Positions 3,217 through 62,420 of a DNA stretch of 64,000 nt are shown piece by piece; position 1 is the first letter of the stretch; each line of letters begins with the position of its first letter. The notes under the pieces were generated by a model. It saw nothing but the letters and a program-made list of their open reading frames with translations. It was not told the DNA's origin and did no database searches. Both the position numbers and the translations under genes were made by a program. The stretch spans positions 1-64,000 of the forward strand of contig QPGO01000033.1 of assembly GCA_008632985.1 (NCBI GenBank). Direction: 5' to 3'. This DNA comes from Psammoneis japonica (Eukaryota).

Positions 3217-3492
3217 TGACAGGATTTGAACAGGATTTGGGTGCGCGCGAAATGTCGCGCGCTGTTTAGTTCACCGCGCACAGTTTTGTGTGCTTTAGTT
3301 CCGCGCGTTCGCGCACGATGTGGTTTGCTTTCGAGCCACAAGGCTCACAAGAACAACAACAGCAGCCCGATTGTGCCGACTTGCACGTCTTTCGGCTCCT
3401 GCAACGGTCTCTGAGCGGAGACTCATCTGCCATTTAGACAGCAGTGAGGAGTCATTGTTTGAATTCTTGCCATTTGCCTTCAATTTCTGTCA
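3217..3492 (+). repeat. 5' LTR of Copia copy 1
   Basis: Direct repeat of 9011..9286 with TG..CA ends. Confidence 0.97.
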
Positions 3493-4587
3493 GATTGACA
3501 GTCTTGCTCATTGTCAACCCATTGAGCAACCGCCATCGTCATCGTTGATTTACCGACGACGCCACTTCAATTCTGCGTGGACCTCCGTGTGTGTTCTACA
3601 TGCATCGGCAAGTCCACGCGCGTTCAATGCCAGGCATCGGCAGGAATTTAACGTCACCGTCAAGTCTCCTTGCCGCTGGATGTCTGGATTGATCATGCTG
3701 CCTTTGATCGCTGAAGACACACATCAACGGTCATGTCCAAGTCTGTCCTTGATCCTCATCCCTTGACACACCCATTCATCGGTTAACGGTCAAGAACCCT
3801 GCATGTTCAAGGATCTTCGTCGCTGAAGACACACATGTGTGCACATCTTCACGGCCAAGAACTTGTGCCCACTCTTCGGACTGCGGTTTTGCTGCCACTC
3901 TACAAGCACACCGAGTCCATTGCACCTGATCTGCCCCGGACTGCTGGTGCTCTGCAGATCTGCCAGGTCCACGAGGACAACTGTGAGAGCAAGCAGCCGT
4001 GGTTGCAGCCTGCGTTGGGGCGAGGGTGCTTTCCCGCGTTTGTTCATTCGTCCACAGTGCCTGACGCCTGCGTCAACTGGCCAGCCTGATCGGGAAATCC
4101 AACCAACATAAAATGAGAACGGTTCGGGGGTCTTGTCCACCTCTGGTCAGCTTGCCTGCAGGGGTTTACAACCCACTGCTCCGCTCGCAAGCAACCCAAA
4201 GCACCGCTGGCTGCGGGTTCGGACATGCCGGCACAACTCTACGGACCGGACAGGAAGTTTAGCACTTGACAACGAACGGGACAGCACAGCCCGGCGACTT
4301 CTGATTTTAAGGCAGTTCAAGATTTCAAGTCAAGTCCATTTCAAGTCAAGTCTGTTCTCACCCAAGTTTCAAGTCTGCCTTTGCTTCCCAACAAGAATTG
4401 CTTGTCCTGACACCACTTTTGTCCACCATGGTTCTCACTCGTCAGCAACAAACCGATGGTTTCGAGCACGTTGTTGGAACCGTGCTTGCCCAAGGTGCTG
4501 GGAGCCCTCTTCGTTTGGCTTTGACACAAGACGGCACGGACTCGCATCAAGAACTGTTCACGTTCACACCGTCCCAAATCGACTCGC

Positions 4588-7500
4588 TTGAGTGCGACAA
4601 CGGACCAATGGAAACGTCTCCCTCCCGACCACCAACGGATTTGGGATTCGTTGCCCCATTCCTCCAAGGCGATCATCCTTGAGCATTCTCGTCCGCCTCC
4701 CCGCAACCTGCGAGCCAGCAACTGCCATGAGTCCATTGCGGCCAACCTTCATGACCAATGCCTTGGGAGTGACGGTGATGTCAACTTGTCCAACACGACT
4801 CCTGCTGACTCTGGTGACTCCGCTCCAAGTGTGGATGCCACTTCGGATGGTCCCATCCTGGCGCACCTCACCAAGCGCAAGCCACTGCCACCCGGTGATC
4901 TGCAACGTCTGTTGTCTCCTAACCAAGCCCCCAACGCCAGTCGACCGGGGCCATCTGCCGCTCCCTCTGCCCCGCCAGCTTCTGCCCATGACACAGAACC
5001 CAATGGCCGCACTTGCCGTCGCATTGACAACCACAATGTCATTTGCTCTGCCTCTGCTCATCGCTCCACACGCACTGGTGCTCCAGTCGATCGTGGGGCC
5101 AACGGCGGCATTGCTGGCGACGACGTTCGCGTCATTGCACGCACCTCTCGCCAAGTCGACGTTCAGGGCATTGACGACCATCAATTGGTGGACATCCCTG
5201 TTGTCACCGCGGGTGCCGTCATTGAGACCCAGCGTGGTCCCGTCATCTCCATCCTCCATCAGTGCGCATGCACGGGCAAGGGCAAGACAATCCATTCCTG
5301 CGGCCAGCTCGAGTGGTGCAAACAGGATGTCAATGATCGCTCTGTCAAGGTGCCCAATGGCTTGCAACGTGTTGCCACTCCTGATGGCTGTGTCATCCCC
5401 ATTGACATCAAGGGCGGCCTGCCTCATGTTGCCATGCGACCTTGCACTGATGCCGAGTGGGACACCCTGCCCCATGTCATCCTCACCGGTGATGACACAT
5501 GGGATCCTTCCGTCCTCGATCACTCTGTCACTGATGACGACCAGTGGTGCGACGCGATCTCTGACCCACAGGACGATCCCACTGCCAACCTGTTTGACGA
5601 ATGCGGCAACTGCTGTCATCGTGTCGTTGTCAACGAGACCATCATGTCCGCTTCCTTGTCTGCCGATCACGCGTCTGCCCTCGATGATCACCTCATTCCG
5701 AACAACGACGTGTTCTGCGAGTGTCATCTGCACGCTGTTGACCCCAAGGATGATGACGTTCCGCCCCCGGAGCGCACTGTGCAGCCCAAGGACCCCCCCT
5801 TCGAGTCTCTTCGGCCTCACTTTGGCTTCCCACCTGCCGATGCGGTCCATCGCACTTTTGACTGCACCACGCAGTGCGTCCGCATGCCCGCCAGCACACA
5901 CCTTAGGAAGGCCCACAAATCACCCAACCCCGCCCTTAATGTGCACCGCCGCAACGAGCCTGTCGCCACTGACACCATTTGTGCCGACACCCTGGCCATC
6001 GACTCTGGTTGCACCAGCGCCCAACTGTTTGTTGGCACCGAGTCCACCGTCACTGACGTCTGTGGCACCAAGACGGACAAGGAGTTTGTCAACACACTCG
6101 AGGATCAGATCCGTGAGCATGGTGCCCCATCCAAACTCATTGGCGACCGTGCTCAAGTTGAGATCAGCAACAAGGTGCTCGGGATTCTACGAGCCCTCTT
6201 CATCTCCAGCTGGCAAAGTGAGCCTCACCAGCAACACCAAAACTTTGCCGAGCGTCGACACCAGACCGTGAAGCACATGGCGAACACTGTCATGGATCGT
6301 TTCGGTTCGCCTGCCCACACATGGCTGCTGGCGCTCATGTGCGTGTGCTTCATGCTCAACCATGCAGCGTCCCCACATCTCCACTGGCACACACCCCTCG
6401 AGACTCTCACTGGCTCCACCCCGGACATCAGCCCATTGCTTCGCTTTCACTGGTGGGAACCCGTGTGCTTCCACCTCGATGACTCCGATTGGCCATCCGA
6501 ATCCCGTGAGTTGCGTGGACGCTTTGTTGGCATTGCTGAGCACGTCGGCCACCAGATGACCTTCAAGATTCTCTCTGATGAGACTCAGAAGATCCTCTGC
6601 CGGTCCAACGCACGATCTGCTGCCACCGATCCTGCCGTTCGAAACCTGCGTCTTGATCCTCCTGATGGGGAGCCACCTGAACCCATCATCAAATCTCGCC
6701 ATGACGACAACCCCGTCGATTCTCCTGATGGGGAGATCAGGACACCCAAGATGCCAGTTTTTGATCCGCAAGACATCATTGGATGCACCTTCCTCATGCA
6801 GCCACAAGAGGACGGACAATGCCACAGAGCTCGCATCGTCAAGGCCGTCGAAGACCACGAATGGAAAGTGAACGGCAATCCCGAGCTCACCAAGTTCGTC
6901 TGCTCTGTCAACAACGACGAATGCGAGGAAGTCCTTGCCTGCAACGACATCATGAATCACATTGAGCAAGAAGACGAAGACACTGCTGTTTGGAAATTTC
7001 GACGCATTGTGTCACACGAAGGACCTCTGAAGCCTCATGACCCAACCTGGAAAGGCTCAAGCTACAACATCATGCTTGAATGGGAAAGTGGGGAGATCAC
7101 GTCCGAGCCTCTTGCCATCATCGCCAAGGACGACCCCGTCACCTGCGCCATCCATGCACGAGAGAACGGACTTCTCGACACTGATGGCTGGAAGCGGTTC
7201 CGCACCATCGCGAGGCGCCAGAAGAAGCTATTTCGCATGGCCAACCAAGCCAAGCTTCGCTCCTTCCGCACTGCACCTCGCCACAAGTGCGGATGCGAAG
7301 TTCCCCGGAACTGCAAACACGCCATGTCACTGGACAAACGCAATGGCAACCGCAAATGGGGAGACGCAACTAATCTCAAGATGGACCAACTCGGGGAATA
7401 CGAAGTCTTCCATGACTGCGGGCCCTTCGAGTCTTCCACTCCTCCTGCTGGACACAAGAAGATCCGAGTGCACCTGGTGTACGACGTGAAACACGACGGT

Positions 7501-9010
7501 CGCCACAAGGCATGACTCGCAGCCGATGGGCACCTCACGGACGTGCCCATCGACAGTGTCCACTCCGGAGTAGTCTCCCTCCGTGGCCTTCGGCTGATGA
7601 TTTTCCTGGCCGAACTCAACGAGTTGGAGACGTGGGCCACCGACATTGGCAATGCCTGCCTTGAAGCCACCACCAAGGAGAAGCTCTACATTGTGGCCGG
7701 ACCCGAATTTGGCAAACTCGAAGGACACATCCTTGTCATCCACAAGGCCCTGTGTGGACTGCGCAGCTCCGGTCTCCGCTGGCACGAGCGCTTCACCGAC
7801 TGCCTGCGAGCTGAAGGCTTCTTCCCCTGCCACGCCGAACCCGACATTTGGATGCACAGGAACGGCGACCACTGTGAACACATTGCCGTTTATGTGGATG
7901 ACCTCGCCATTGCTGTGAAGGACCCTCAATCTTTCATCGATGCTCTCACGGAAAAGTGCAAGTTCAAGCTCAAGGGCACGGGACCCATTGAGTTCCATCT
8001 GGGTTGCGACTTTTCCCGGGATCCCGACGGCACCTTGTGCCTGTCTCCGCGCAAGTACATCGAGCGCATGGTCGACAGCTGCACCCGACTGTTTGGGGAG
8101 AAACCCACCACCAACGCCCTGTCACCTCTGGAGAAGGGTGACCACCCCGAACTGGACACTTCTGAACTGCTGGAGCCCAATGGCATTCACAAGTTCCAGT
8201 CTCTTGTTGGTTCACTCCAATGGGCAGTGTCCCTTGGTCGAATTGACATTGCCACGGCCGTCATGTCACTCTCCAGCTTCCGAGCTGCACCCCGTCAAGG
8301 CCACTTGGATCGTGCCAAATGCGTCTGTGGGCACCTCTCCAAGATGCGACACGGAACTCTCCGCGTTCGCACGGAAGAGCCCGACTGTTCGGATCTCCCT
8401 GCTCTGGCCTGTGAATGGATGCATTCCATGTGCGGCAAAGCAGAAGAGATGATCCCGAAGGATGCTCCACCGCCCCTTGGCAAGTTCATCACTGCCACCC
8501 ACTACGTCGATGCAAACTTGCACCATTGCATGCTCACCGGACGCTCTGTCATGGGAATGCTCCACTTCCTCAACAAATTCCCGGCTGATTGGTTCTCTAA
8601 GAAGCAAGCCACCGTGGAGACTGCGACCTGCGGGTCTGAATTTGTTGCCGCAAGGACTTGTGTCGAACAGATTGTCGACCTGCGCATCACCCTGCGCCAC
8701 CTTGGCGTCCCGATCCGCAATGTCAGTTGCATGTTCGGTGACAACAAGTCGGTTGTAGACAGTGCCACCATCCCGCACTCCAAGTTACACAAGCGACACA
8801 CCGCACCATCGTTCCACCGTGTGCGTGAGGCGATTGCCTCTGGTCACCTTGAGTTCCACTTCATCGAAGGCTCCCACAACCCTGCTGACATTCTCAGCAA
8901 GCATTGGGGTCACTCCCAAATCTGGGACCTTCTCCGCCCCCTCATGTTCTGGAACTTCATTCCATCCGAAGTCGAATCTGTTTCTGTGACTCCTCAAGCA
9001 AACTGGGGAG
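4588..9010 (+). pseudogene. Copia pol (protease, integrase, RT, RNase H) with an in-frame TGA at 7513-7515
   Basis: Protease VDRGANGG. Integrase region SEPHQQHQNFAERR. RT ATDIGNA, LCGLRSSG and YVDDL. RNase H GDNKSV and NPADILSK. The stop replaces the Arg of KARL (CGA->TGA). Confidence 0.93.
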
Positions 9011-9286
9011 TGACAGGATTTGAACAGGATTTGGGTGCGCGCGAAATGTCGCGCGCTGTTTAGTTCACCACGCACAGTTTTGTGTGCTTTGGTTCCGTGC
9101 GTTCGCGCGCAATGTAGTTTGCTTTTGAGCCACAAGGCTCACAAGAAGGACAACAGTGGCCCGATCACACCGACTTGCACGTCTTTCGGCTCCTGTGATG
9201 GTCTCTGAGCGGAGACTCATCTGCCATTTAGACAGCAGCAAGGAGTCATTGTTTGAATTCTTGCCATTTGCCTTCAATTTCTGTCA
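9011..9286 (+). repeat. 3' LTR of Copia copy 1
   Basis: Follows the PPT and is followed by TSD ATGCT. Confidence 0.97.
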
Positions 9287-17400: not shown

Positions 17401-17529
17401 AAGCATTGGGGTTGCTCCCAAGTCTGGAACCTCCTTCATCCTCTGATGTTTTGGAACTTGGATCCCGAGGCTTTCAACCAATCTGACCTCAAATCTGTCA
17501 CTGTTGACCCCCTCAAGCAAACTGGGGAG
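11492..17529 (+). pseudogene. Copia gag-pol of copy 2, broken by stops, frameshifts and a nested insertion
   Basis: Fragments 11375..11920, 11978.., 13198..13920, 14297..15784, 15803..16333 and 16489..17532. The pol fragments align to copy 1 pol. Stops at about 11918, 15782 and 16331, and a frameshift near 16485. Confidence 0.9.
13862..14308 (+). mobile_element. Miniature non-autonomous LTR element (TRIM-like), 447 bp, nested in Copia copy 2
   Basis: 110-bp direct repeats at 13862..13971 and 14199..14308 with TG..CA ends. Purine tract GGGGAGGAG immediately before the second repeat. 4-bp TSD CTGT at 13858-13861 and 14309-14312. Removing the insert restores the frame FESLCPHFGF, which matches copy 1 FESLRPHFGF. 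Confidence 0.88.
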
Positions 17530-43346: not shown

Positions 43347-44885
43347 TGCTAAGTTGACCTGCCCACTCGGAATTCCAGCTGGTTATTGCTGGCACCGTTT
43401 GTTGCTACGATGATCCGTGTGCGCTTTCGCTAGAGCTATCGGTCGTCGTTGTGGCTTTCGTTGCTTCATTCGGGCTTCATTCGCGCTTGCGAGTGGGCCA
43501 ACCATTTCGCTATGCGACGCCGAACAAAGAAGAAAATGAAAAACGGAGTTGAGGAATACAGACCTGAGAAACTTCAATGTTCCATTTTCCCGCCCTTTTG
43601 ACCACGCGCGCAAACCCGACTGCGAAATTCCATGTTGGTTGTCTAATTTTGTGTCCCTCGAAAAATGTTACTTCGTGCCTTAAAGATGGGATTGATTTTA
43701 TGTCACAACATATGGAATGATTTCTACATGGGATGCAACAAGATTTGGCACATCCCTTTCTCTCTCAAAATCGACCATGATGCCGCTTTTGAAGCCCCCC
43801 AAAACACAGAAGCACCACGTTCAGACAACGAAGAAGAAAGCGACACTTGCAAAGGGCTCTGCCGGCGCCTCACTGAGAAGCTTTCTGTTCCAGATGCAAC
43901 AAAGAGTGGGTCCAACAAGAAGACCACTGAAGCCAAGAATGATCAAGACAAGAAGCACAAAGCACCAACGGATGGCAGCAAGAGCAGTGGGTGTGTTGTG
44001 GCAAAGAGGCCAAGGATGAGCTGGCCCAAGAGGAGCCTTGCCTGCCAGCCATGGCGGGAGCAGTGAATGAGCAGCTTGGCAAGAAAAGCTGGCACTGTGA
44101 TGAGAGAAGCTTGGTCAATGGAGGCATTTGTCAATGATGTTGGAGCAGTGTGATGCCTGTCAGTGCTTTCTCAGAAAAGCGTGCCAACGACGACCCCCCT
44201 GCAAGAGACTCTGAAGCTGCTCTGGCACCACTCTTTGTTGCTTCTCCACTGGAGCCCCATGGAAAGTGTCCATGCTTGATTCCAGCTCAAATCAAGAAAA
44301 CCCACTGCTCCTCCCATGCAAAAGGCTTGACAGTGCGCAATGGAAGACCCAACAAACAACCACCAAGCTCTAGACTGTCCACTCAGAGATTTGCCAGGGG
44401 CACATGCAGTTGGGACAAATTGCTGTCCTTTCCCAGCTTGTTTGTTGGCAATGCAACACAAAGTTGGTGCAGCAATGGCACGTCAATGCTGACTCAGCTC
44501 TGCCAGTGGCATGGACACAAAGAGGGCATTGTGCCAGAAAGTGCACATGATTCTGAGATGGCACAGATGTCTGCACTTGCTTGTTGCAAAGAAAACCCTT
44601 GATGGTGCTTCTTGAGTGACACCCAGTTTTCAACAAGTGCAACCTTTTTGAGCTTCAAAGTGCCAGAGTGGTGATGGTGTCAACAATGATTTGGCTCTTC
44701 CAGCATGTCATCATAAAGCTCTCATTCTGAAGACAGGCACACTCTTCTTGTTTGCTGCCCAGTTCAATGATCATGATGTGACAATGCTGGTTGGTCAGGC
44801 AAATGTTTGGCCCAAGCTCTGATGGATGGAAGGAGGTGGACACAATGGAAAGACCATGTTGCTGGACAGACAAAAACCCATGACC

Positions 44886-44887
<2 letters not shown>

Positions 44888-44916
<29 letters not shown>
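44888..44916 (+). repeat. (CT)n microsatellite
   Basis: Perfect CT run of about 14 units. Confidence 0.95.
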
Positions 44917-44920
<4 letters not shown>

Positions 44921-46179
44921 GCACACTTCATTTGTGAGCCACAAGGTTGCAAAAAAGACTGCTCACACAGCTTGTGTGCTGGTTTGGAGAACAGCACCCA
45001 CACATCTTGTTTGCTGAGCCACAACACGGACACAGCAAACAATTGATGCTCCCAACAATCAACCAGCCTTCAATGATTGGGAGAGGTTGCTCCAATCTCT
45101 CTGCACTGGCTCTCCACATCAGAGTCATTTCTGGGAAGATTTCAAGCTGTGGCAGGGGCAAAATTTTCCTGGAGTTTTGCACTCAGGCAGCAGCTCAAAA
45201 TGTGTTGCCAATCAACCCACTCTGTGACAATTTGTTCAAAGAGTCATCAGCAGTTTGTTCCTTCAACTGTGTGCCAAGGAAGTTGGCAATGTTGTCCTTG
45301 TTGGCTGGCTCAAGCCTTTTGTCATGCAGGAGCCCTGAGCAAGCACACCTGGTCAATGTCTGGCTTGCATCATGCTTTGCCAATCCCACAGCCATCAATG
45401 TGCAGACAGATGATGCAACTGGCTCAAAGCAGGAGGCAAGGGTGCACATGGGCAAAGAGGCATAAAGTGGTGGCTGAAATGTGCCTTGATCTCCTGGCTC
45501 AAGTTGTGCTGGTGGCTCTCATGGACCAGCAAATGAAAGAGCTGCTCTTGACAGGCAGACCACACAGGGGCAGGCAGCAATCCAAGATGAACAGAAGTTT
45601 GGGCTGCACAGACACCTGACAAGTCACATCTGGTTGTGTGCACTGGAAGAGCCCAGAGCACAGCAGGGGCTGCCTGGAAGTCTGCAGCATGCTTTGATGC
45701 GGGGCAGGTCCACACTTCCTGACATCAGTTGCCCACTTGCATCCTTGGCATGTGTTTCTGCATGTGCTTTTGTGCTGATGTCACTCTTTTCCGATGGCAT
45801 TTTGCTGGGTCCCCTGACACCCTTTTGGCCACTTCTGTCATTGGTGTGCCCTCATTTCAGCATCATGTGCAACAATTTTTAGTGGAAACAACTGGCATTG
45901 ATGCCTTGTGGTTCGCATGCTTGTTGCCTTGTTCAGAATTTTTTTCAAATTCAGTGCATTTTCTACACAGGATCTGGTGCAAATTCTGTGCACTTCAGAA
46001 ACACCCACCGATGATTGCAACGTCCTTGATGATGAAAACAACTTCCATTCACACCCGTCAGCCCACCATGATTTCTTTTTCTCCTGCCAGCTGCTCAAGT
46101 CCTTCACCTCATGTGGTGAAAGTGCTTTCTAAAAGGTCAACAAACAAGTTGTTCTTAAGACTTTGAAAGATTGCAGCTG

Positions 46180-47110
46180 GAATCAGATCCAAACTTGGGG
46201 AGCCCCTCTTCATCTGTGAGCCCAGTTGGAGAACCAAGCTGCACTCAAGCAAGCAGTGCTTCAGGAGCACAACAGCACCCATCCTTGTTTTTGCTGGCAG
46301 CAATGCACAGCTGTTGAACTTGATGCAAACTGTGGCAAACTTGCACAAGATCTGTTGTCGACCAACAAGATTGTCCACCGCTACAACCCAACACATCCCG
46401 ACTGCTGCACACACTGCCAACATCTGCTCATGGACAGAGACCACAATTTTGTGGTGCGAACACAATGAGTCTTGGTGGAGCACCTTTCTCCAGTGCTTGC
46501 GGAAGAAGTGTGATGACATGCACACATCTCTGTCACTCCAGGATCTGTTGCTGCATGCTCTTGAGGGATGGTTTCATGACAACTTGCTTCATTCTGAAAA
46601 TGTCCATGAGAGTGCTGTGGCAGTGTTTCAATCTCAAGACAAAGTTGGTTGGAGACAGATTTTCAATGGGTGTTTCTCCTCATTCTGGAACAAAGCTCAA
46701 GCATCACACTTGTTGTCCACTGGTTTGTGTCACTCCTTGTCAGATGAGGAAAGGCACTTAGATTGGGCCGCCATGATTGGCAGTTTTGTGTGTGGTCTCA
46801 ATGGTGGGAACTTTGGGACAGTCACAACGACGCTGTGCATGGGCACAATTCTGAAACAAGAAAGTCCTCACAGTGCCAAGATGCTGAGGCAGAAGTGCAA
46901 GCTGTCTGTTCCAAGGCTGAAAACTGTTTGGCTTGTGATCAATCTGAGTTGCTTGATTCAGTGGAGGAACATCTTACCCATTCGACCCACAGATTGCGCA
47001 ATTGGTTGGCTGTGGTCAGGCCAATGTTCAAGTCAAACGTCCACGAAGCCCGGTGTCCAGCAGTGAGGGGCACTTGCACCATTGCAAGTTGCTTTGGCAT
47101 GGCATCACCT
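46180..47110 (+). mobile_element. Degraded 3' part of a non-LTR (LINE-like) retrotransposon ORF
   Basis: Frameshifted motifs LLSTNKIVHRYNP..CCTHC...DRDH (zinc-knuckle-like), QDKVGWRQIFNG and WELWDSHNDAVHG resemble the C-terminus of LINE ORF2 proteins. Confidence 0.6.
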
Positions 47111-50100
47111 CAGGGTGGTGGTGCCAATTCAAGCCATTTGTTGTGTGCTCCTGCCACACCTGGTGCACTGGGAGTGTGGGTTGGCTTTGCCAGAGTTTCA
47201 GGGTGGAAGTGCAGCAACACTTAAGGTTGGACTTTGGGCTTTGTTTCAATGCAAACTGCAGAGCTGCTAACTTGGCTGCAGCTGAACTGGAGTGCCAAGA
47301 GTGGCCAGCAGCAGCACCATGATTTTGGTCAAGTCATCTAGATCTCCAGAAGCAAGCAGCACAACAGTTTTGCCAGTCCACATTCCTTGAAGTGACCCAC
47401 TGCACTCTTCTTGGAAATGAGCCAAGACTCAAGCAACTTGCACCTTGGCTCCTCCTGCTGCAGATGACCTCACTGGATGTCACAGCTGTGCTGACTGAAG
47501 TTGTGAGCTGTCTGAGACAAGTCCAGTGAGCATCACAAAAAGCCATTTTGTTGCACACACCTCTGCCAAAAAGCACCGCACGTCATCCATGAAGACAAAT
47601 GTCATCTCTGCAATGATGGACCTGGGAGCACTGCTGAAACAAAATCATGCAGCTGCTGTTTCAGCCTGTCACTTGCAGGTCCATTGCTGCTTCAAAGTGA
47701 TCTCAGCTCAGCAGCGTGGTCAGTGTGACATGAGAAAGTTTTCAGCTGAAGAGCTCTCCAATGGGTGGAAGGACAGACACAACAAAAAAGACTGAGTGTT
47801 GCCAAAGAGGTGACCCATGACTCTGATCCAGCTGTGTGCCAGTTGTGTGGGGACAGAAGCAAAAAGTGCTTCTGAAAAGCAAGCAACCATTCTGGAGATG
47901 CTGCAGAACCCCCTCAATTGTTGAAAAAGCTCTGGCAGTGCTGTTTGAGTCTCATCCACTCCAACAAGTGCATGAGTGGCACTCATGAGTAATTTTCCAA
48001 GCAAAGAGAGGCAGGAGGCAGCCACTCTCATGGCTCTCTGCAGGTGTGGCTCTCCTTGGTCTTTTTGGCATTCTGGTTGCTTGTCACGGTTGGCAGGCAC
48101 CACTCATGTGGGGCTGATGGAACAGAGTTTGGTGGCTGGCTGTCAACATTTGCATGCTGCAGCTTGAGTGGCTGACCCTCTGCACCCCATTTTTTAAGCA
48201 CTTGGCAAATGTGCTGGGAAAGGCTGTGCCCCTCCCCCCAGAAGCATGCGCTTCTCTTCTTGGTGGAGGAGCAGGGGAAGGTGGCAGAATTGCCGCAGTT
48301 GTGGTGCACCAGTTCTCCATCCTTTCCTTCTCTAATTTCTCCTTGGTTTGATGTTGTGAACAGAGAAGAAATTTGGCAATCTGGTGCTGGCAATGCAAGA
48401 GGCCCAGAGAAACATTGTCAACAAAAGCATCTTTGTTGGTTGGGGGCACATGCGCGACATCACCTGGTGCTGGCACGGGGTGCAGACAGTGGGTGCAGTG
48501 CAGGGTGAAACAGTGTCATGTGGGTGGGGAACAAGCAGGTTCTGAAGATGGGAGCAGCAAGTTGTGCATGCAGTTTGGTGGAGCATCAGAGAAGTTGCTC
48601 AGCGAGGGACTTGGTGGCAGCAAAACTGCTGGCTGAAGCCAGTGGGCAGGAGTGTTGGCAGCATGGTGAGCAAGTCCAAATTGGGCAGAGGTGATGGTGG
48701 TCAATGAAGCTGCAGCAGCAGGAAAAAGGCCCAATGTAGAGAGTTGAGTGTTGGCACAGGCCCAGGCAGCATGTGCAGACAGGTGTTGGGAGGAGGAGGG
48801 TGCTGAGTTCCAGGGCGGAGCAGGAGGGGGGGTGTTGGATGTTGGCACCGCTCTTGGTTGGCTCCAAAGAGAAGGCAGTGAGCAAAGCATCCAGGGGCTC
48901 CGAGGTGGTCTGTGGCGTGAAGGGCATTGGGTGGATGCCATCTTTGTCAAGGGAAGTGATCATGGCAGTGCCGCATTTCGCAGCCAAGACTCTAAGCCAA
49001 GCAAGGAGAGGACCTCCTTGACTGGACCGAGAGTCACCGCACGAATGTGGGAGCGAAATGGGTTGAAGGACGGACGACGGACGAGACGAGCGGAAACGAG
49101 GCCAGCCCAAGGGATCCCCTCATTGTCTGGCAGGATGGGAGACACCATGGTGCTGTCGGAGGCGTCTCCTGGGAGATGCCAACGATGAAAATCGAATGGT
49201 TTTTCTCCCTCTCCTGTCAGTCAATGCTGAAAATCCCTTGCGTGGTCTGCTTGCGCAGCCGGGAGTGTCTCGTGCATTGGCACTGTTTGCCACCACGCCA
49301 TTTCGGCGCTATCCTGTGGATGCACCTCCCAATTTTTTTTGCTGTTAATGCTGACTACGGCCACGCCATCTTGGCGCCATGTCATGTGGGCATTGCTCTA
49401 AATCCCGACTGGGTCCGCTCATTGGCGGGGACCGCTTCAGCGGCCGAGGATTGCCTCGCACTCTGGCCTGTTTGCCACACCTTTCAACGGTGCTTTCTTA
49501 CAAGGAGCACATCCTCATTTGGACGGTCTCAGTGCCATTAAAGTCCCGCATGGGCAAACAGCAGTGTGGCTTTTTCATTCCGCCTGCCACTTTCTCCTGA
49601 ACGCCCAGGTTGGGTCTTTTTCTTTTGCCGCTCTGCGGTCCATGGTCATCGCCTTCCCCCTCGGCGTGTCCAATTTTTTTCCCTCTCCCAGGGATGCAGT
49701 GTGTTCAGGCTTGTGTGCCAGTGCACTGCAGCGTTGGAATTACCAGTTCTATCTGGTCGATGTCAATTGCACGCACATGTGTGCATTCCCGCGAGGGTTT
49801 GGTCAAAACGAAATTTACCACCACGTTTCGGGGTTTTTCGTCTTCTCGCGAAATGCGCGCCATCACGATGATGAATGGTGATGGAAACTGACCCGTCACA
49901 TGGGGGATGAAACTTGGATTTCTTCTTGTCTCCATTCATTGGATAAGTGCAGGAATCGCGAAGGGTTACGTTTGCGGAACTGACACGGCATCAGTCAACG
50001 CTTGTCCTTCTCGAGCAATTTCCACACGCTGGTGTCCTTCACTTTCCGGTGAGATTGCTCTCACTTTTCCTTTTTTTGCGATCGGACGAGCCTTCAGTTT

Positions 50101-50122
50101 TCTGCTGCCCTGTTGTTCCACC

Positions 50123-52360
50123 ATGAGCCAAGCCCACGCTGCTGCCATCAACCGCGGTGAGCTCTCCGCTGCAAAGCGGCACTCCGCCGCTTTGCCCTCC
50201 TCCACGGGTGCGATCGAGTCTGTCTCAACTGCTGTCCACCGTGACACCCAGAAGGAGCTACGAGACCATGTCTTCGCGACCTCTGACCTTTTCTACGCGG
50301 TCCATAATCGCAAGATTGCGGTTGTGGCGAAACCTCGCCCCAGGCAGCACGCCGATGGGAATCTAAAGTGGATCGGGAGCCTCTCGGATGCGATCGGCGA
50401 GGTCATCCCGATGTCTGGCAGTTGGACTCGTTTCCAAGGCCATGTGACCACTCTAGTCCCCCAGGGCGCTGTGGATGCTCATCACCTGCCCAAGTGCGAA
50501 CTCAGCCCTGACGAGATTGACGGTCCCGTTGGCAACGACGGCAACAACGTGCCGGCGTCGATGGGTCGTCTCCATTTTGGGAATCCTTCCGGACCGGCAG
50601 AGCGTCCCTCCATCGTCGCGCTCCCGATGTTCCTGCCAATCCCAACGGGCATCACCCTTCCTGTTGACTTCGACCCAGCAGATCCCCCAGCATCCCTTGC
50701 CACTGACTTTCTGCTCGGAGCGGTTTGGGCTCAGGGCATGTCCTGGTTGCTTCAGCACAACGCTTCTGTCTCTGTCACGGAAGGCGGCCCTGTGTTTGAG
50801 CAGAACGGTTTTGCAATTGTCGATGAGTTTGCAGGCCTCAAGATCTACAATCTTGATGACAATGATGTGCAGATGCTCCAACCTCTGACGGATTGGTGCA
50901 CACCAGTCAAGACCACGATGGACGCCTTTGCGGATGAGACCTGGAGGCACCTCGGTGGAGAAGAGCCCGCGCAGATGCAAGCTCCCGCCGCCCCAGCCCA
51001 AGGCACCAACGGACAGGTTCCGAACTGTGCCATCCACATCCCGCGCCAGGACTCGAAGAAAGAGTCAGACCAGAAGCTGAGGGCGCGCCGACATTGGTTG
51101 CCGCTGGTCACTCTGTGCGTTCCGAGCGACTGCTGGTGCAGGTCCGGAGGACCCGCCTGTGATCATCGTGGGCGAGCTTGCAGACCAAGCGGTTGAGATT
51201 CTTCAGGACACGTCGGCTGCCAATGCAAACCGTGACCTCGCGGATCTTGTTAAGATGGCCATTGTTGCATCAGCCCATGGTGATGGCAGTCTAGACGCTG
51301 GGGTCGACTGCAAGTGCACCATCGTCAACAAGGCCCACACGGACTGTTTCCGCGGCTTTAATGTGGTTGCGGAGCCCCCGCAGTGTGGCCAGGCTTCGCA
51401 CCATACGAAGCTGTCTGTCCTTCCTTTTCTTCCCCCGAAGACTGCATCATCTTCATTTGCTGGTCTCGAGGACGAAGGGAGGGTGCTCCATCGGGTGCTT
51501 GCTGACGGCTCCGACTGCAAGATCCCTGATGACGCGAAGGCAAGCGACCTTCATGTCCAAGGAAGGATGGACACCGCCAGCGATCTGTGGTCAGTGCTTT
51601 GCAACTTTCGCTGTGTCCTTGGATGCTGGATCAAGGACTTCGACAATGCGGAGCTGTGGAAGTCCCTGGATGCGTGCGCAAAGGTTCTTTGGTCGCACCC
51701 GGGCCGCACGTGGCTCAAGAATCTCGAGGACCCCAAACCAGTCGTCGCTGGCATCCCAGACGATTTCCAGACTATCATCAAAGTCTGCTTTGAGATCGGA
51801 GACTCTCCATTGTACCGTCAGGCGGTAGAAACCGAGCGTCCACTGAGCCATCAGATGGCAAAGGACGCCCGCACTCTGGTCAAGTCCCTCATTGCGGACC
51901 TCAACACCGCAATCACGCGGGGCAAGCCTCTGGCCTTTGTGGAGGCATCTACGTTGGCCCTTGTCCCCCCAGGCAACTCTGTGTTCCTCTCTGCCAGCGG
52001 AACGAAGGATGATGCGACCAAGTCTGGTCAACCTCTGAATGAGAAGCCGCGCACGGGGGAAACAGATGACAAAACCGCCGAGCTCTGCAAGGCGATGGGC
52101 ATGCTCAATTTTTCGGGCACGAAGCGGCTCCCGACCAGCCCCGTTTTCTACAAGAAGCGAGGATCAGATCAGGAGGAACGCATCTGCATGCACTTTTGTG
52201 CTGAGGGGCACTTCTGCAAATTCCCCAACTGCCCGAAGCCCCACCCATCGTCACTCTCCAAGATTCCGAGTGAAAAGAGGGATGCCTTTTGCCAATTTGT
52301 CAAAGACACCCCGGGGCTCGATTTTGTTCCTGGCAAGGGCCCAGACGGTGCGTCCCAATC
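50123..52360 (+). pseudogene. gag-like ORF of the YR element with C-terminal CCCH zinc finger, frameshifted near 51.1 kb
   Basis: Frames 49907..51196 and 51159.. are collinear. Contains CMHFCAEGHFCKFPNCPKPH. Confidence 0.6.
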
Positions 52361-52484
52361 AGGTTCGAATGTTCCCAGTCTATGCACCATGCCCTGTTGC
52401 CAATGCAGTGTTGTCCAAAACTGTTCCATTTTTCACTCTCGATTAGTCTACGTTGTCCCTGACAGGTCCGTTCGTCTCATCGCA

Positions 52485-55346
52485 ATGGATGTCGACGACG
52501 ACAGCGATCAGGAGTACAAGGTGATCGATGCAGAGCAAGACGAGACCGGAGTGAGTGTCGCTGAAGCCATCCCAGCTGTTGACGCTGCACTTGCCACGTC
52601 GGTGAAGGAGCCGCACCCGAGCCCACGCCGAGGTGCGGTCACGCCGCAGCCTCCCGTCGACGAGAATGAGCTGATCGAGCTGTTCCCTGCCTTCTCCATG
52701 GTCCATAAGAAGAAAGGGACCGATTTGATTCCTGCAATCAATGACGGCTTCAATGAGAAGGCACGTGAGCACTTTGCCAACACGGAACTGTCACCGGGCG
52801 TGCGTGCTAAATTGGACCAAAAATTCGGCAAGGAAAACTTGAATCAATGTTTCTTGTCGGAAGCGTGTTTGCGTCATGTGTTGCTGCCGCTGTTGAAATC
52901 TGGATGCATGTCGCCACCGGTTGATTGCACGAGTGACTCGTCTGCCCAAATCGTCTTTGGGGGCGATTGGGAGAACTTCGGAGCGGCCATCCCGGAAGTA
53001 GCCGAGTTTATGAGCCTGGTCCGGGAATGTGGCGACATCGACTTTAATCCTCTCCAAGGCTGCCCCGAGGGATGGCAAAAAGAGACAACGGTTAATGCGG
53101 ATAGAGCTGCGATGACAACTGCCGCGTTGTTGCATTTTGATGGCGACCCAGCAAACCTCGTTCGCTGGGTTGGCGGACCGCACGTCGGTGAACACAGATG
53201 CACGCAGAAAATGCTCCGCTTTCTACAAGGTCGTGCACCCGACGAGACAACAGCACACGTTTGCCGCATCTTCCAAGACGGGGCGCCAGCGAAATGCAAC
53301 ACTGCTTTCACTGAAGCCAACTTCCAAGCAGCTCTCAAGTGCGGAAACCACAAGACCGTCGACGCTGCACCTGACAAAACATTGGCGGCAGTCGTCAAGG
53401 ACAATCGCAAGGGTTTCACGCTGCTTTTTGACCAGCGTCTGGTGCCGCACTTGCTGAACTGCCATCTCACTCCTCAGGGGATGGTGGACCTTGACAAGAA
53501 ATGCAAGAGTCCGCGCCCTGTCTTCGACAGCACGATGCGAGCGACTCCGGGTGGCATGGCAATCAACGACACGTTGGACCTCAAGCACGAACCGCCAATC
53601 ACGTTCCCATCAGCGGAAATGGACTTTATGGTGTGGACATGGAACATGAGAATGTCCCACCCACACGAGGAGATCTGCCTCGGCGATGATGATGTGAGTG
53701 GCGCTTTCCGCAACATGAAGCACCACCCGAACCTCATCGGGATGCACGCCAGCGTCCAGTGTGGACTGGGCATCCTGCAGACGGGTTGCACCTTCGGCGA
53801 TGAGACCAACCCAAGCAACTGGGACGCTGTTGCCAACGCAAGACAATGCCTTGCTCAACAATTCTGGCTGGTGCCCAACGTGGTGGAACTCGCCCAGCAG
53901 CATCTCCCGACGACATCATTCGCCGAACCTCCCACAGCTGAAGAGGTGGCGTCATTCTGTCCTGCGGAAGCAGACGCTGTCAATCCGGGTGTGTTCCTAG
54001 ATGGCAACCGTTTGCCACCAACATGCAAGCACCACGTCGACGATGACTTCTACGGAGACATGCGTGACTTGATGAAAAGAACAGTCGCTGCGAGCGCCCT
54101 GGCCGTGCATGTTTTGTTGGGCTTCCCACGCGATGAAACTCCGGATTTCCCAAGCAAAGAGAAACTGGACACACTGTGCTTGCATCTCCGACGAGCCCCA
54201 GGAAGGCACTTCAACTCAAGAGTGCTGTCGGTGGGAATGCTCCCATGCAAACGAGAACAGTTCCTTGAAACTTTGCGAGAATGGCACGACAAACAACGGC
54301 ACACACTGTTGGATGCAGCGAACCCAAATGGTCAATGTGAATTCCACACGCGGCATTGTCCATGGGCTCGGCCGAATTTTTTTGCACTCCAGAACTCCAT
54401 GCGGCGGGCTGTGGTCGTCCAATGCACCATTGTCAAACGAATCATGGAGCGACAAAATTTCAAATTAAATTTTGAAACTCAACTGCTGAGTCATCTCAGA
54501 AATGGGCTGCCGAGCTTGCTCGCGCGCACACAGGCCCAGCTCCTCTGTCAGCTGAAGACCGAGATCCCGATGACATCTGATGTCATTGATGTGACAAAGG
54601 GTGCAGTGTCCCACATCGAATCAACGCCAGACCCATGGTCAGCACCGATTGGATGTGTCATGCCATGAGTGCCACATTGCCAGGCAATTGGAGATGCCAG
54701 TGACGCAGGTGGAGGAGCCTGCTGCGCGGAACTCAAATTTTGGTTCGCATTTCTTTGGGGACCAAAAACAGCGAAAGGGCTCCGGCTGAGGAAGGCCTCC
54801 GACCCAGAACATGTCCACATCAACACAGCAGAGTTTGTTGTCATCACACTCAAGCTGGCAGCTACAATTGTCCGCATGGAGACTGTGACCCGAGAACGGG
54901 CCCATGAGTTCTTCCGGAACGGCATCGTCCCGCTGTACCTGGTCGTCAGGAGTCGTTCAGACAACATGGTGTCGGTCAACCGGTCCAACAAAGCAACGTC
55001 AAAGTCGCCACAGGGGCAACGATTTGTCTGGGTCTTCTGCGAATTGCTCCGCCGTGCTCGTGCCAACTTCAACGGAGATCACATCTTTGGCGACGAAAAT
55101 TTTGTTGCCGACGACATCTCACGACCTTCTGTTTTTGCCTTGATCTCGCATCGCACCCATTCTGAACAGCTGTTTCGGAAGCATCCCTTTCTGAAGACCT
55201 GGGACTGTTTCCAGCCGAGTCAAGAGCTGCTGCAGCTCCTCTCCTCACAGCTGTCCACCAAGCACAGAATGGCACCCCAGATCCCAAGCGACTTGGGACA
55301 GCTCGATCCCGCAAAATCCATTTCCTCCACTTTTACAAGAGCATGA
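52485..55346 (+). pseudogene. RT and RNase H of the YR element; in-frame TGA at 54666-54668
   Basis: RPVFDST, LGDDDVSGAFR, TFG..NPSNW and HVDDD (decayed YVDD). RNase H motifs IGDAS, HINTAE, SDN and ENFVADDISR. Confidence 0.85.
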
Positions 55347-56422
55347 AGTGGCATCTAGGAGATCCGGAAATGACTGTGATTGGCAAGGACCTGAAGCGCT
55401 GCCAACTGGTGCCAGCTGTGCATGCTTTGCATCTAGCCAGCGGCTCCACTCTCTGCTGCAAGAATGTCTCCTCAGGTGCCATCAAGGAACATGTCCACGA
55501 CGTGTCAACGTTCGTGTCTCCATTTGGTTCCACGCATCGGGACGTCCGTAAAGACAACAGCATGGACACCAAGATGGGGTGGATCCTCAGGGGAGCATTC
55601 GATGAACTCCAATGGCATGAGAAAGTCCCGGAAAGGCACGAGTCACACACATTGCTCATGCAGCAACAAGCGACGTCAATGGCAGACACTGTGCGAGAAA
55701 CCGACCCGGATGCGATCGAAGTGGTCCTCGCTGACTGGTTTGAGATTGGGCCAATGGCCGGCTTGCGAAGTGTCGAATGGGCCCAATCCAATGAACACTC
55801 AGAACTGGAGAATCCAAGGCTGAACATCTTCGAGGAGACCTGCGCGTTCTGCCTCGACGACGTCCGATGCGAGACAAAAGACAAGCACCGACACACCGGG
55901 GCGGATTGTCTTGTCCCCAAGCAAGAGGATGTCGAAAGCATGTGTGTCATGTTCCGAGCTCAGAAGAACATGCACAATGGTGAGGAACGCCAGTTTGCAA
56001 TGAACCTCGATGGCAAGCACGACTTGGCAAAGCCGATGCTTTGCGTCATCCGACGTTTCGTGCAGGTCCGTGGCAAGGATGACAAGATCTGCCCCCTTGC
56101 TCTCTACTTTGATCCAGAGAAGGGCAAGTGCCGTCTCGTCACGTCCAAGAAAATCGAGACCCACATGCGCCGAATTGCCACAGAAGTGTGCCACCTCGAC
56201 CCGGTGAAAGACAAGAAAGCTCTTGGCAAATGGTCAGCTCACTCCCTCCGTGTTGGAGCCTGCAACATCCTTCACGAGATGAACTTTAGTGGCGAGCAGA
56301 TTAAATGGCTGCTCAGATGGCGATCTGATGCCTTTGTGGCTTGTCTCCGCAACTGCCTGGGTCTTTCCGAGGCCCATTGTCAAGCTCTCGACAAGGCGGC
56401 ACCCATGCCGTTCTTCGATTAA
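55343..56422 (+). pseudogene. Tyrosine recombinase with catalytic Tyr replaced by Cys
   Basis: GLRSVE (catalytic R), FRAQKN (K), HSLRVGA (HxxR) and RWRSDAFVACLR, where Tyr is expected at the Cys. Confidence 0.88.
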
Positions 56423-57647
56423 TTCCTTTACACGGATTCAATGTGTCCCCTTTCCACGCGTCCTCTCTGCGTGATGTAAAATCGCACACTGTCGTCCCAT
56501 TGCATCTGAAATTTCAATTTTGAAATTCGAAATTTGATCCCAGCAACGTGATCGTGTGTGTGCATTCAGGAGGAACATTCGTTCCTCCATCATGTCTGAA
56601 GAAAATGGATTTTTTTTTTTCCGGTTGGCTCTGCCTCCGATGACATGGGCGCGTTCGCAATGCTTCCAGCATTCCGCGTCGGCAGCATGGTCTGCACACA
56701 GTGAAAAAGGGAACCAATTGCTTGGCACTGGTGATTCCAAGCCCAGTCCCATGTCCCAATTGCTTCACCTGCTAGCGACTGTTTTCATCGTGGCAACAAT
56801 GTGAGTCTGTGTGCGGGTGTGAGTGCTGCGTGTGTCACAGACGACACCAATGTGTTGCATCGATGGATGAGAGACGCTTCCACTGTGCCATGTCATCGGA
56901 GTGCAGACAGCCGAGGCGGAGGCAGGGAATCCGTGGGATTCTCGCAGCCAAGACTCTAAGCCAAGCAAGGAGAGGACCTCCTTGACTGGACCGAGAGTCA
57001 CCGCGCGAATGTAGGAGCGAAATGGGTTGAAGGACGGACGACAGACGAGACGAGCGGAAACGAGGCCAGCCCAAGGGATCCCCTCATTGTCTGGCAGGAT
57101 GGGAGACACCATGGTGCTGTCGGAGGCGTCTCCTAGGAGATGCCAACGATGAAAATCGAAAACCCACCACTCCCTCCCCTGTACACAGTGAAAAAGGGAA
57201 CCAATTGCTTGGCACTGGCGATTCCAAGCCCAGTCCCATGTCCTAATTGCTTCACCCACTAGCGACTATTTTCATCGTGGCAACAATATGAGTCTATATA
57301 CGGATATGAGTACTACGTATATTATAGACGACACCAATGTGTTGCATCGATAGATAAGAGACGCTTCCACTGTGCCATGTCATCGGAGTGCAGACAGCCG
57401 AGGCGGAGGCAGGGAATCCGTGGGATTCGGGCTTCGTGGGTTGCGTCGAATTTCGACCTCACTTTTCTTTTCACTTCCACCGCACACCGTACACCGCGCA
57501 CACCGCACCGCAAAAATCGTCGAAACGCGAGAAGGGAAAACGTATGAGAGAGAAAGGGATACGATAACGTAAACAAACTCCAAACAGCAGTTGTTACTGC
57601 CATTGCCTGACTACATACAAGAGCACATTGCCATATAGTAAGACACA

Positions 57648-58511
57648 ATGGTTCTAGAAGCACGAGAAGTGGTGTACTGCGGAGCATGTGGAATGCCACC
57701 GGAGTATTGTGAATACGGGCCAGACTTTGAATCGCACTGTTTGCCGTGGCTAAAGGAAAATCACAAGGAAATGTACATTAAATTGCACTCGAATAAAAAC
57801 AAGGACGAAGACGGTGATGCTGCCAAGGAGGAGCGCCCTGAACGACCATGGACAACAGAAGAACGATTAGTTGCTTTTTATACAAAGTACCTGCCAGAAA
57901 AGGTATGAGTATGTTTGATGGCTTCCTCGCTGCCAAACTGTGTGTCTGCTCGACGATTTCTCAATCTCTGACGCATTCCAATCGTCTTTATTATTCACTA
58001 GATCGACGGAGTCCCAGCTCTACTAGAAAAGTACGAAGGAAAGCATGACAAGCTTTTTCAGGCTCTCGTGAAGAAGTACGGGCCTGAACCGGACGATCCT
58101 TACTATGCCGAAAGCAGTGACGACGAAGACAGCGATTTGGCTGAAGAAATGGGACAAGCTTCGCTGTCAGACGGCAAGAAGAAGAAGCGCCGAGGCGTTG
58201 CCGCTAAGAAAGCCACCAAGGTGGATACCCGAGTGGTGATTCAAAAGATTTCGCGGAACAAACGCAAGGCCGTCACAATTGTTGTTGGGATGGATACCGT
58301 GCCGAATGTCAATCTCAAAGATGTGGCCAAGGCGTTCTCGAAACGCTTTGCCGGGTCGTCGTCTGTCAAGGATGGGACGCATGGGAAAGAAATTATTATC
58401 CAGGGTGATCATGTGGATGATGTTGCAGACATGGTTGTATCCAAGTTTGGTGTGCCTTCGGATTCAGTGTTTTTGGATGAAGGTGGAGAACTAGTGCCGT
58501 ATGATGCATGA
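57648..58511 (+). CDS. DENR: Density-regulated protein / TMA22 (SUI1 domain); intron 57903..58001
   Basis: VVYCGACGMPPEYCEYGP, RNKRKAVTIVVG, FSKRFAGSSSV and IIIQGD. Confidence 0.92.
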
Positions 58512-58939
58512 TCGTTGAGCTAGTAAATGACGTTGGAGATGGACTGATACAGTGTGCCGACTTGACCTTGAGCGCGTGCAACTGAATTCTTTCTTTTCAG
58601 ACGAGAAGCAGTAGATGACGTGACTTGTTTAGAGTAAGATGATCGCGACGTGACGAAGATCCCCCTTTTAATGTATCTTTAAAATCAAGTTGACGTTTTC
58701 AGCTGCAATGCAATGAGTTGTGTCGTTCTGTGCGTGCATCTTCTAAGCACCAAAGCTTGTTACCGGTACGAGAAACGATGGAAAGGTTGCGCCATAACAA
58801 TGACAACTGACGAAGATAAAAGCAGAGGAAGGCACTGACAGTTGTTTGGATCTTTGTCCACAGACCCCACACATGAAGAGATGATGCTCAGAAGAGAGAT
58901 GGAGATAGATGGAATGCACCTCACGCCTGAAATAAATAA

Positions 58940-61840: not shown

Positions 61841-62420
61841 GTGTTTACAGAATCGACTAGGTGACGTTGTCAAAGTGCGAACCCCGATCACGGAGTTTGG
61901 CAGGAACAGCTGTTTGCTGTCACCCCGCTCAACGGCAGCCACACGATTTGGTGTCAGATGCGATTCCGAGGTTGAGTGTGATTGGTCAACTAGAAAGGAA
62001 AGTGCAATGCTGTTAAATAAAATTTTCAAATCTGACGAGGAAAAATGAAGAATTACTTATCGATTTGAACGAATCCGAACAATCAACATCAAAGGCATTT
62101 AAATCCCATTTTTGAATATTTAAGAAGGTCATCAAAATATTTAGGGAATCAATCACGATCAGACTGGGCAATTGAATCTTCAATATCAAAACGGTTGAAT
62201 TATCTGATTGGTTATCGTCCTTTTCTTGACATCTTGAAGGGCCCACTTGACACCTGACCATAAATACCAATTCCATTCTTAGTTCCGCGGAACACTGAAT
62301 CTTCTACGGAGGAATTCCTACATATTTACGTAGGAGACGGCTCGCTGGAGTGCAGTGTTGTTGCACGTGACAGGGAACTCCCATAATTTCCTTCGCCAAC
62401 AAACAACGGAAGAAACGACC

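Follow-up and report, generated by a model that had tools for sequence, protein, structure and literature searches.

This study concerns a 64,000-nucleotide (nt) stretch of DNA from the diatom Psammoneis japonica (GenBank assembly GCA_008632985.1, contig QPGO01000033.1, positions 1 to 64,000, forward strand), referred to throughout as the window. Toward its right end lies a putative Ngaro-like tyrosine-recombinase retrotransposon (48978–57428), whose open reading frames (ORFs) are framed by split direct repeats in the order A1-[ORFs]-B1-A2-B2, followed by a host gene for a DENR/SUI1-domain protein. The two B repeats differ in a characteristic manner: B1 is nearly devoid of TpA dinucleotides (TA), with TG or CA in their place, while B2 retains them. 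This contrast had been noticed in a first-pass annotation of the window, which took TA as the ancestral state and B1 as the altered copy. Here, we analyze the difference spectrum of the repeats, the common origin of the arms, the direction of change and the distribution of TpA loss across the window, and weigh the competing explanations.

Difference spectrum of the B1/B2 repeat pair

B1 (56692–56941) and B2 (57179–57428) were recovered by repeat search as the one family of 250-nt direct repeats in the window; they are 92% identical and align without gaps at a spacing of 487 nt. Base-by-base comparison identified differences at 20 of the 250 positions, all of them transitions (G in B1 and A in B2 at 14 positions, C and T at 4, T and C at 2). 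When classified by dinucleotide, 12 differences read TG in B1 and TA in B2, and 4 read CA in B1 and TA in B2. Two more form an adjacent double difference at 56770–56771 (TG in B1, CA in B2), and a single one, at 56732, is of the CpG class (TG in B1, CG in B2). B1 contains 1 TA (odds ratio 0.08) and B2 contains 17 (odds ratio 1.02), with GC contents of 0.544 and 0.480, respectively. The single TA surviving in B1 stands in a CTAG context and is the only TA common to both repeats. A TpA-erased B1 beside a TA-retaining B2 is thereby confirmed. The earlier hand count over the core of the alignment (14 differences: 11 TA>TG, 2 TA>CA and 1 GA>GG) and four additional sites beyond that core proved exact, the CpG-class site at 56732 being the one omission; across the complete ungapped alignment, 16 of the 20 transitions place TA in B2 opposite TG or CA in B1.

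Two tandem paralogous host genes within the window (33487–34575 and 35921–37114), compared over 34201–34883 and 36740–37422 (683 nt), served as a control. At 91% identity, these paralogues differ at 59 positions, comprising 32 transitions and 27 transversions, with 4 TA-class differences and no TG/CA doubles. TA-class differences account for 18 of 20 in the B pair versus 4 of 59 in the control (Fisher p = 4e-12), and the share of transitions differs likewise (20 of 20 versus 32 of 59; p = 7e-5). At all 16 single TA-class differences, the TA is located in B2 (binomial p = 3e-5). With polarity taken from homologues, 18 single changes are assigned to B1: one is CpG>TpG and the other 17 are AT>GC, 16 of which fall on TpA (12 to TG and 4 to CA). 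Ordered along B1 (56695–56869), the outcomes read CA CA, TG twelve times, CA CA and TG TG. The 18 outcomes thus group into 4 runs (p = 0.03 by permutation), which hints at strand-coordinated events, working along one strand.

Element anatomy and common origin of the arms

Ngaro/PAT elements of the DIRS order are described as carrying split direct repeats of the form A1-[ORFs]-B1A2B2, the inner ones lying 3′ of the recombinase gene (PMC8547959, PMC4157794). In the window, B1 abuts A2, and A1 (48978–49196) matches 56942–57160 of the A2 region at 98.2% identity over 219 nt by BLAST. On the basis of this layout, B1 and B2 are assigned as the B arms of one predicted Ngaro-like tyrosine-recombinase retrotransposon (Table 1). 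The A pair resembles the B pair in its differences, which number four, two of them TG in A1 and TA in A2 and two of the CpG class. A2 carries TAs at 56957, 57012 and 57134, two of which are TG in A1, and CTAA is the only TA common to both A arms. Over the single TA-class differences of the two pairs (16 in B and 2 in A), the change lies in the inner or 5′ copy in 18 of 18 cases.

Table 1 Features of the window discussed in the text
Feature	Coordinates	Strand	Remarks
A1, 5′ arm of split direct repeat	48978..49196	+	TpA-erased; 1 TA, odds ratio 0.12
Internal region of the Ngaro-like element	49197..56691	+	TpA odds ratio 0.14; CpG odds ratio 0.8–0.95
Pol-like frame	51081..55346	+	66 homologues, 36–46% identity; one in-frame TGA
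Tyrosine-recombinase-like ORF	55166..56422	+	805 relatives at E<=0.001
B1, inner B arm	56692..56941	+	TpA-erased; 1 TA left
A2, inner A arm with 18-nt link	56942..57178	+	Homology to A1 ends at 57160; 3 TAs
B2, terminal B arm	57179..57428	+	Unerased; 17 TAs, odds ratio 1.02
Host DENR/SUI1-domain gene	57649..58511	+	One intron, ATG at 57649; Pfam SUI1 E = 3e-20
TpA-depleted domain holding A1, element body and B1	44371..56957	.	TA density about 5 per kb
Copia-type long terminal repeat (LTR) retrotransposon	3217..9286	+	RVT_2 E = 6e-20; TA odds ratio 0.02–0.18; intact-looking

When TpA- and CpG-class differences are set aside, a single mismatch among 469 positions remains over the A and B pairs combined, and neither pair shows a transversion. 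Furthermore, one contig from X1, a separate contig run (longest record 315 kb; platform not on record), joins 48977 directly to 57429, skipping exactly 8451 bp, A1 through B2, with 0 letters shared at the joint. Such a joint is what would be expected if a recombinase had inserted the complete A1..B2 unit with no duplication of the target site; it also points to the possible existence of an empty allele or of a strain lacking the 8451-bp insertion. Given the single non-class difference in 469 positions, the absence of transversions among these pairs and the empty-site joint, the simplest reading is that one insertion gave rise to both B1 and B2. The earlier statement that the two repeats should have been identical at insertion therefore holds to the extent that the pairs show virtually no divergence outside the two dinucleotide classes; for split direct repeats, strict identity is an assumption.

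Other copies of the family show deletions and alternative joins in the TA/TG-rich core of B and at the A/B junction, as seen in X1 contigs over 56743–57364 (joints 56798>57339, 56743>56852, 57119>56705 and 57122>57364).

The segment A2–B2 might instead have come from another, unerased copy through recombination, gene conversion, recombinase-mediated joining or chimeric assembly, in which case the contrast with B1 would be real but the same-insertion control would be lost. The family is indeed multicopy, with 778 X1 contigs matched at a likeness of at least 80% and 73 of them fitting two places; three of the joints listed above (56798>57339, 57119>56705 and 57122>57364) represent other B/A arrangements; and no contig listed spans the whole stretch, X1 holding 0.50 of the sampled words. 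Such a separate history is nevertheless unlikely. A 1-in-469 divergence between the pairs contrasts with the transversions found at 429 of 1972 changed places when the window copy is compared with other family copies, the empty-site contig removes exactly A1 through B2, and the B1|A2 junction matches the expected B2|A1 circle junction.

Direction of change

Polarity was assigned using outgroups, as the pair alone gives no direction. Homologues of the pol-like frame and of the recombinase-like ORF were examined at Tyr-majority columns, defined as those with Tyr in at least half of the homologues (66 for pol and 92 for the recombinase). At the 22 such columns of pol, the window carries Cys (TGY) at 10, His (CAY) at 4, Tyr at 1 and other residues at 7; at the 5 columns of the recombinase ORF, it carries His and Cys twice each and Tyr once. 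Across both ORFs, the one-step product of TA>TG or TA>CA thus occupies 18 of 27 columns (Cys at 12, His at 6) and Tyr persists at 2, in contrast to the other conserved columns, of which 225 of 261 are unchanged (Fisher p = 2e-6). Tyr content is correspondingly low, at 0.42–0.48% in the element ORFs (0.42% in pol) versus 3.05% in homologues. The DNA of metagenome relatives has a TA odds ratio of at least 0.45 in 79 of 80 cases (range 0.29–0.86), compared with 0.14 for the window element, so the family is not intrinsically TA-poor. Since CpG is near-intact in the Ngaro-like element (odds ratio 0.8–0.95), the ancestral dinucleotide would be TA rather than CG.

A few metagenome relatives of pol (L044, and also L027 and L018) show lowered TA (0.29–0.48) together with raised TG and CA, and the same TpA process may operate in their hosts.

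Variation among family copies provides a further view of polarity. The best-supported 40 of 1972 rows of variant sites against other family contigs were considered, a non-random sample that covers 32 variable sites and none in B. Among these 32 are 8 TG/CA doubles, 9 single TA versus TG/CA differences (in both directions), 6 CpG-class sites and 9 others. At 53028–53029, the window copy reads TGT, three contigs carry CA, and 67% of homologues have Tyr. At 49048–49049, A1 reads TG, A2 reads TA, and CA occurs in three other contigs; this configuration favors a TA ancestor, which needs 2 changes, versus 3 for a TG ancestor. Family copies were therefore erased independently of one another. Four independent lines support TA as the probable ancestral state and TG/CA as derived, with B1 erased and B2 ancestral. 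The direction originally proposed, loss of TA in B1, is upheld by the Tyr-to-Cys/His replacements at 18 of 27 columns, by TG/CA alternation among copies, by site 49048–49049 and by precedent in a preprint on Bigelowiella natans discussed below.

In fungi, repeat-induced point mutation (RIP) generates TpA from CpA, lowers GC, is guided by homology and affects both copies; CpA/TpG is its classical context. A RIP-like or cytosine-deaminase process converting CpA/TpG to TpA in A2–B2 would make B2 the derived copy and leave the ancestral TG/CA in B1. The pair alone could not decide against this, 17 of the 18 positions with G/C in B1 and A/T in B2 have CpA/TpG context in B1, and the TA odds ratio of B2 (1.02) exceeds the 0.4–0.77 of host blocks. 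We regard a derived B2 as very unlikely, however. The coding region of the same element is polarized the opposite way at the Tyr columns, more steps would be needed at 49048–49049 if TG were ancestral, and C>T changes alone cannot produce the TG/CA doubles seen between LTRs. Moreover, just 16 of the 56 TG and CA sites of B1 would have been affected, yet the TA density of B1 would match the level of erased blocks by coincidence, and it would be a second coincidence that the single TA of B1 lies in the best-surviving context. RIP itself was rejected, given TpA-poor repeats of raised GC content, a TA>TG/CA direction of change and the sparing of one twin.

TpA-poor blocks across the window

The whole window has odds ratios of 0.35 for TpA, 1.41 for TG and 1.34 for CA. 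A 1-kb profile resolves this average into blocks at 3000–19000, 44000–57000 and 59000–62000, about half of the window, with TA at 0.02–0.2 and TG/CA at 1.3–2.1, whereas the gene-bearing remainder shows 1-kb TA odds ratios of 0.4–0.77. TAs number 5.1 per kb inside the poor blocks and 39.6 per kb outside them, with sharp edges between the two. To the left of the domain that holds A1, the element body and B1, TAs remain dense as far as 43725, and to the right they return to high density at 57182. The classified TA-poor blocks are mobile elements. CpG is depleted (0.07–0.5) in 9000–19000, 44000–49000 and 59000–62000 but not in the Ngaro-like element, and since CpG is nearly intact there while TpA is nearly gone, TpA loss and CpG decay are separate processes, of which TpA loss is the faster here.

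Within the poor blocks, TA survival relative to normal blocks depends on the flanking bases. It is lowest for ATAT (0), GTAT (0.009), ATAC (0.02) and GTAC (0.08) and highest for TTAA (0.49), TTAG (0.41), CTAA (0.30) and CTAG (0.23). The corresponding counts left in poor blocks are 0 ATAT, 1 GTAT and 2 ATAC versus 25 TTAA, 19 TTAG, 16 CTAA and 15 CTAG. The process prefers RTAY over YTAR, and the TAs retained by both members of a pair (CTAG for B and CTAA for A) belong to the best-surviving tetranucleotide class.

The copia-type element has 276-nt LTRs of the form TG...CA and a 5-bp duplication, ATGCT, on both sides. Of the 20 differences between its LTRs, 19 are transitions, including 10 that pair up as 5 TG/CA double sites, for example TTGTGC versus TCACAC. 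CpG is not depleted there (0.77–0.98), so the ancestor of the double sites would be TA. Because LTRs are copied from one template at insertion, each must have resolved its TAs separately after integration. The same double pattern accounts for 4 of 7 differences in the 13871/14208 pair and 18 of 38 in the 10459/17530 pair; overall, nearly every difference within the LTR pairs and within the A/B pairs is at a TpA-signature site.

These repeats bear on RNA-level ADAR-like editing, whereby A>G changes would have been introduced into the element transcript before reverse transcription. ADARs typically prefer a 5′ U, according to the B. natans preprint (10.64898/2026.01.13.699255), and TG exceeds CA on the sense strand (22 versus 10 over B1 and 16 Cys/His columns, namely 10 Cys and 6 His; p = 0.05). 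Other-strand CA outcomes are nonetheless common (4 in B1 and 6 His codons), B1 and B2 would have shared the same RNA, and the copia LTRs, made from one template, differ by TG/CA doubles, which places the changes after integration. RNA editing is accordingly a highly improbable source of the pattern. ADAR-type hyper-editing fixed by reverse transcription was rejected for the presence of CA products and for the TG/CA doubles between LTRs of the same element.

A long-read assembly that systematically misread modified TpA in silent chromatin as TG or CA could also be imagined, as strand-dependent miscalls might mimic both the TG/CA alternation and the sharp edges. That the blocks are such an artefact is barely credible: X1, assembled separately, holds half of the sampled 31-letter words, and 194 X1 contigs match at a likeness of at least 99%, which would not occur with about 40 wrong sites per kb. 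In addition, the signature in the preprint came from Illumina reads and appeared in some lines only (10.64898/2026.01.13.699255). GC-biased gene conversion and selection against UpA in RNA were both rejected, as each leaves unexplained the strict TpA specificity, the near-complete loss in dead non-coding repeats and the TG/CA alternation between LTRs.

The remaining poor blocks are less well defined. A second element at about 10459–17776 is 75% similar to the copia-type copy and has terminal repeats that are 80% identical; it is depleted in both TpA (0.02–0.15) and CpG (0.4–0.5), and from its composition it looks older and methylated. The regions 44000–48977 and 59000–62000 are unclassified, with TpA at 0.03–0.1, CpG at 0.07–0.43 and TG/CA at 1.5–2.1, and three ORFs scanned from them gave no Pfam match. 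The Ngaro-like element sits directly against the former. Among 10 ORFs from TA-poor blocks other than the Ngaro-like element, one matched Pfam (RVT_2), and an Rfam scan of the whole window returned 0 matches at the gathering score.

Erasure boundary beside the host gene

The host gene downstream of B2 lies within a TA-normal island (approximately 57180–59004) between two erased blocks. For its SUI1-domain protein, the organism-named matches among the 120 listed are diatoms in 14 of 14 cases, at 56–75% identity. A1 and B1 are located inside the poor block, whereas A2, with its 3 TAs, and B2, with its 17, lie just outside it, 220–700 bp upstream of the start codon, so that the edge of the erased domain falls within the A2 region. 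Elsewhere in the window, poor blocks reach from a few hundred bases to about 1.4 kb past the ends of elements, and a targeted domain therefore fits better than recognition of element sequence. Because B1 and B2 started from the same sequence, a search guided purely by homology or small RNAs could not have told them apart. Taken together, the layout argues for targeting by position or silent chromatin rather than by sequence homology, and the active neighboring gene may set the boundary of the erased domain.

For a 543-amino-acid host ORF, no database match exceeds 63%; together with the diatom matches of the SUI1-domain protein, this led to the rejection of B. natans as the host.

Coding content of the Ngaro-like element

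The four ORFs of the element gave no match when searched against Pfam. For the pol-like frame together with 26 homologues, no Pfam match and no sequence match in the PDB was obtained, and a pol profile searched against the PDB returned nothing credible. The consensus of the pol homologues contains, by eye, the motifs ADDDVSGAFR, HVDDNLYAD, GDAS..GGGAY and HIAGV.NV.ADDISR, from which we take the frame to encode a putative reverse transcriptase and RNase H. The family is widespread, with 170 confirmed metagenome loci and 66 database proteins (P0001–P0066). The frame is interrupted by a single in-frame TGA at 54666–54668, where 65 of 65 homologues have Arg; it looks like a CpG-type CGA>TGA change rather than a TpA change.

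The recombinase-like ORF of the window, searched alone, matched neither Pfam nor any PDB sequence. A profile of 35 homologues gave a weak match to Cre recombinase in its C-terminal catalytic segment (E = 0.0075), and Pfam Phage_integrase was found in 2 of 6 homologues at E = 0.012, below the curated cut-off. Within the segment aligning with the catalytic end of Cre, a Tyr kept in 98% of 92 homologues is replaced by Cys in the window (TGT, 56342–56344). This residue is probably the catalytic Tyr. Judged from its sequence, the copy appears to be dead and would be incapable of autonomous activity.

In the poor blocks, TAA stops occur at 1.9 per kb and TAG stops at 1.7 per kb, compared with 8.4 per kb for each in normal blocks, while TGA is unchanged at 21 per kb. 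With TAA and TAG about 4.5–5 times rarer, many long overlapping ORFs arise in several frames in 50000–56500 and in the other TA-poor blocks, where ORF length is misleading.

Proposed mechanism

We consider it probable, with good confidence, that TpA hypermutation after insertion erased the element body, including A1 and B1, and spared A2 and B2, so that B2 would keep the ancestral TAs. Under this model, the element inserted as an A1-ORFs-B1-A2-B2 unit whose A and B pairs were alike. After integration, A would have changed to G at the DNA level within 5′-TA-3′ on either strand, a change of the top-strand A yielding TG and of the bottom-strand A yielding CA. Erasure of the body, A1 and B1 would have neared saturation, while the last approximately 480 bp (A2 and B2) would have been spared as lying outside the targeted domain, 220–700 bp from the host start codon. 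The lesion would most likely be deamination of adenine to inosine in DNA, with oxidation or modification of thymine giving T>C as an alternative. What the sequence shows is the substitution pattern, its polarity, the independence between copies and between LTRs, and the sharp-edged distribution of blocks; on the proposed scheme, an enzyme would act on silent mobile DNA according to position, presumably through chromatin.

Several points weigh against this reading. The difference at 56817 (GG in B1, GA in B2) is an AT>GC change off the motif. Split direct repeats need not homogenize fully at each retrotransposition, and some of the B1/B2 difference could in principle have been inherited from the source copy. 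The empty-site joint comes from a single contig with 30 letters on its shorter side at 80% likeness, a type of joint that calls for caution. Polarity was drawn from the coding region, the A arms and the LTRs, with none of the listed variant rows covering the 20 B sites, and a 32-nt exact B probe yielded 0 matches among metagenome contigs.

More tentatively, and with slightly less than even confidence, we propose that diatoms possess a position- or chromatin-guided DNA hypermutation system, RIP in reverse, that destroys TpA in silenced transposons, prefers RTAY over YTAR, saturates faster than methyl-CpG decay and is excluded by active genes. It could be the same system as in Bigelowiella, either ancient or widespread in the stramenopile–alveolate–rhizarian (SAR) group, and may have gone unnoticed in published diatom genomes. 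The figures in the preprint (211 mutations, 6169 TpA and 3132 generations) correspond to approximately 1.1e-5 per TpA per generation, at which 90% of TpA would be lost in about 2e5 generations. If the rate is similar here, an insertion that is still polymorphic could already be saturated.

Comparison with known systems

The element of the window resembles Ngaro/PAT elements of the DIRS order in its split-repeat layout and, as judged from the empty-site joint of one contig, in the lack of a target-site duplication. It differs in that sequences of its pol family match nothing in Pfam or the PDB, its recombinase is recognized weakly and the copy appears dead.

As for the mutational process, the pattern shares with RIP a dinucleotide-specific transition hypermutation that acts on transposons in post-integration DNA, disables them and leaves block-wise scars. 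The direction is opposite, however, with TpA destroyed and GC raised, and one of two identical copies is spared. APOBEC enzymes produce G>A or C>T changes, and ADARs act on RNA, on one strand only. The clustered, deaminase-type transitions in retroelements, together with the hint of strand runs, recall APOBEC3 and ADAR, but here both strands are affected, after integration. Methyl-CpG deamination likewise resolves a palindromic dinucleotide to TG or CA, and CpG decay also acts in the older blocks of the window; in the Ngaro-like element, by contrast, CpG is retained at 0.8–0.95 and TpA is nearly gone.

A literature search for TpA hypermutation in diatoms or elsewhere, which did not cover subscription journals, found only one account, the preprint on the chlorarachniophyte B. 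natans (Mettrop et al., bioRxiv 10.64898/2026.01.13.699255). According to this preprint, 231 of 302 nuclear mutations in mutation-accumulation lines fell in two integrated viral regions, where A>G or T>C made up 230 of the 231 new mutations and the GC-biased ones were all on TpA. It also reports 124 TpA-poor, CpA+TpG-rich clusters in the genome, an enrichment of reverse-transcriptase and DDE domains among TpA-poor genes, and an ADAT2-like deaminase as the proposed enzyme (10.64898/2026.01.13.699255). Measured against these descriptions, the window shows the same A:T>G:C transitions confined to TpA, with TpG or CpA products according to strand, in foreign-derived regions, and the same clustered TpA depletion coupled to CpA+TpG enrichment. 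This suggests that the same signature is now found in a diatom. Differences are also apparent: the host is a stramenopile rather than a chlorarachniophyte, the targets seen are Ngaro-like and copia-type retrotransposons, and the TA odds ratio is 0.02–0.2 over about half of the window, compared with 0.45 in the viral region of the preprint. In B. natans, de novo mutations were observed in lines, whereas here the signature is read from static sequence.

The one report of the signature thus concerns a chlorarachniophyte, and diatoms represent a distant and ecologically dominant lineage. Erased elements present false long ORFs in all frames, and their lost Tyr codons defeat domain searches, so that gene callers and transposon annotators are misled. 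B1 and B2 constitute a natural experiment in which two copies of equal age and identical sequence at a single locus met opposite fates; the contrast argues for positional targeting, whether by chromatin domain or by nearness to a gene, and narrows the boundary to about 200 bp. Preferential erasure by tetranucleotide context and an edge within an element were found here, and neither was found in the available part of the B. natans account. What the window adds to that system is retrotransposon targets, near-saturation, the tetranucleotide preference and an internal control for positional targeting.

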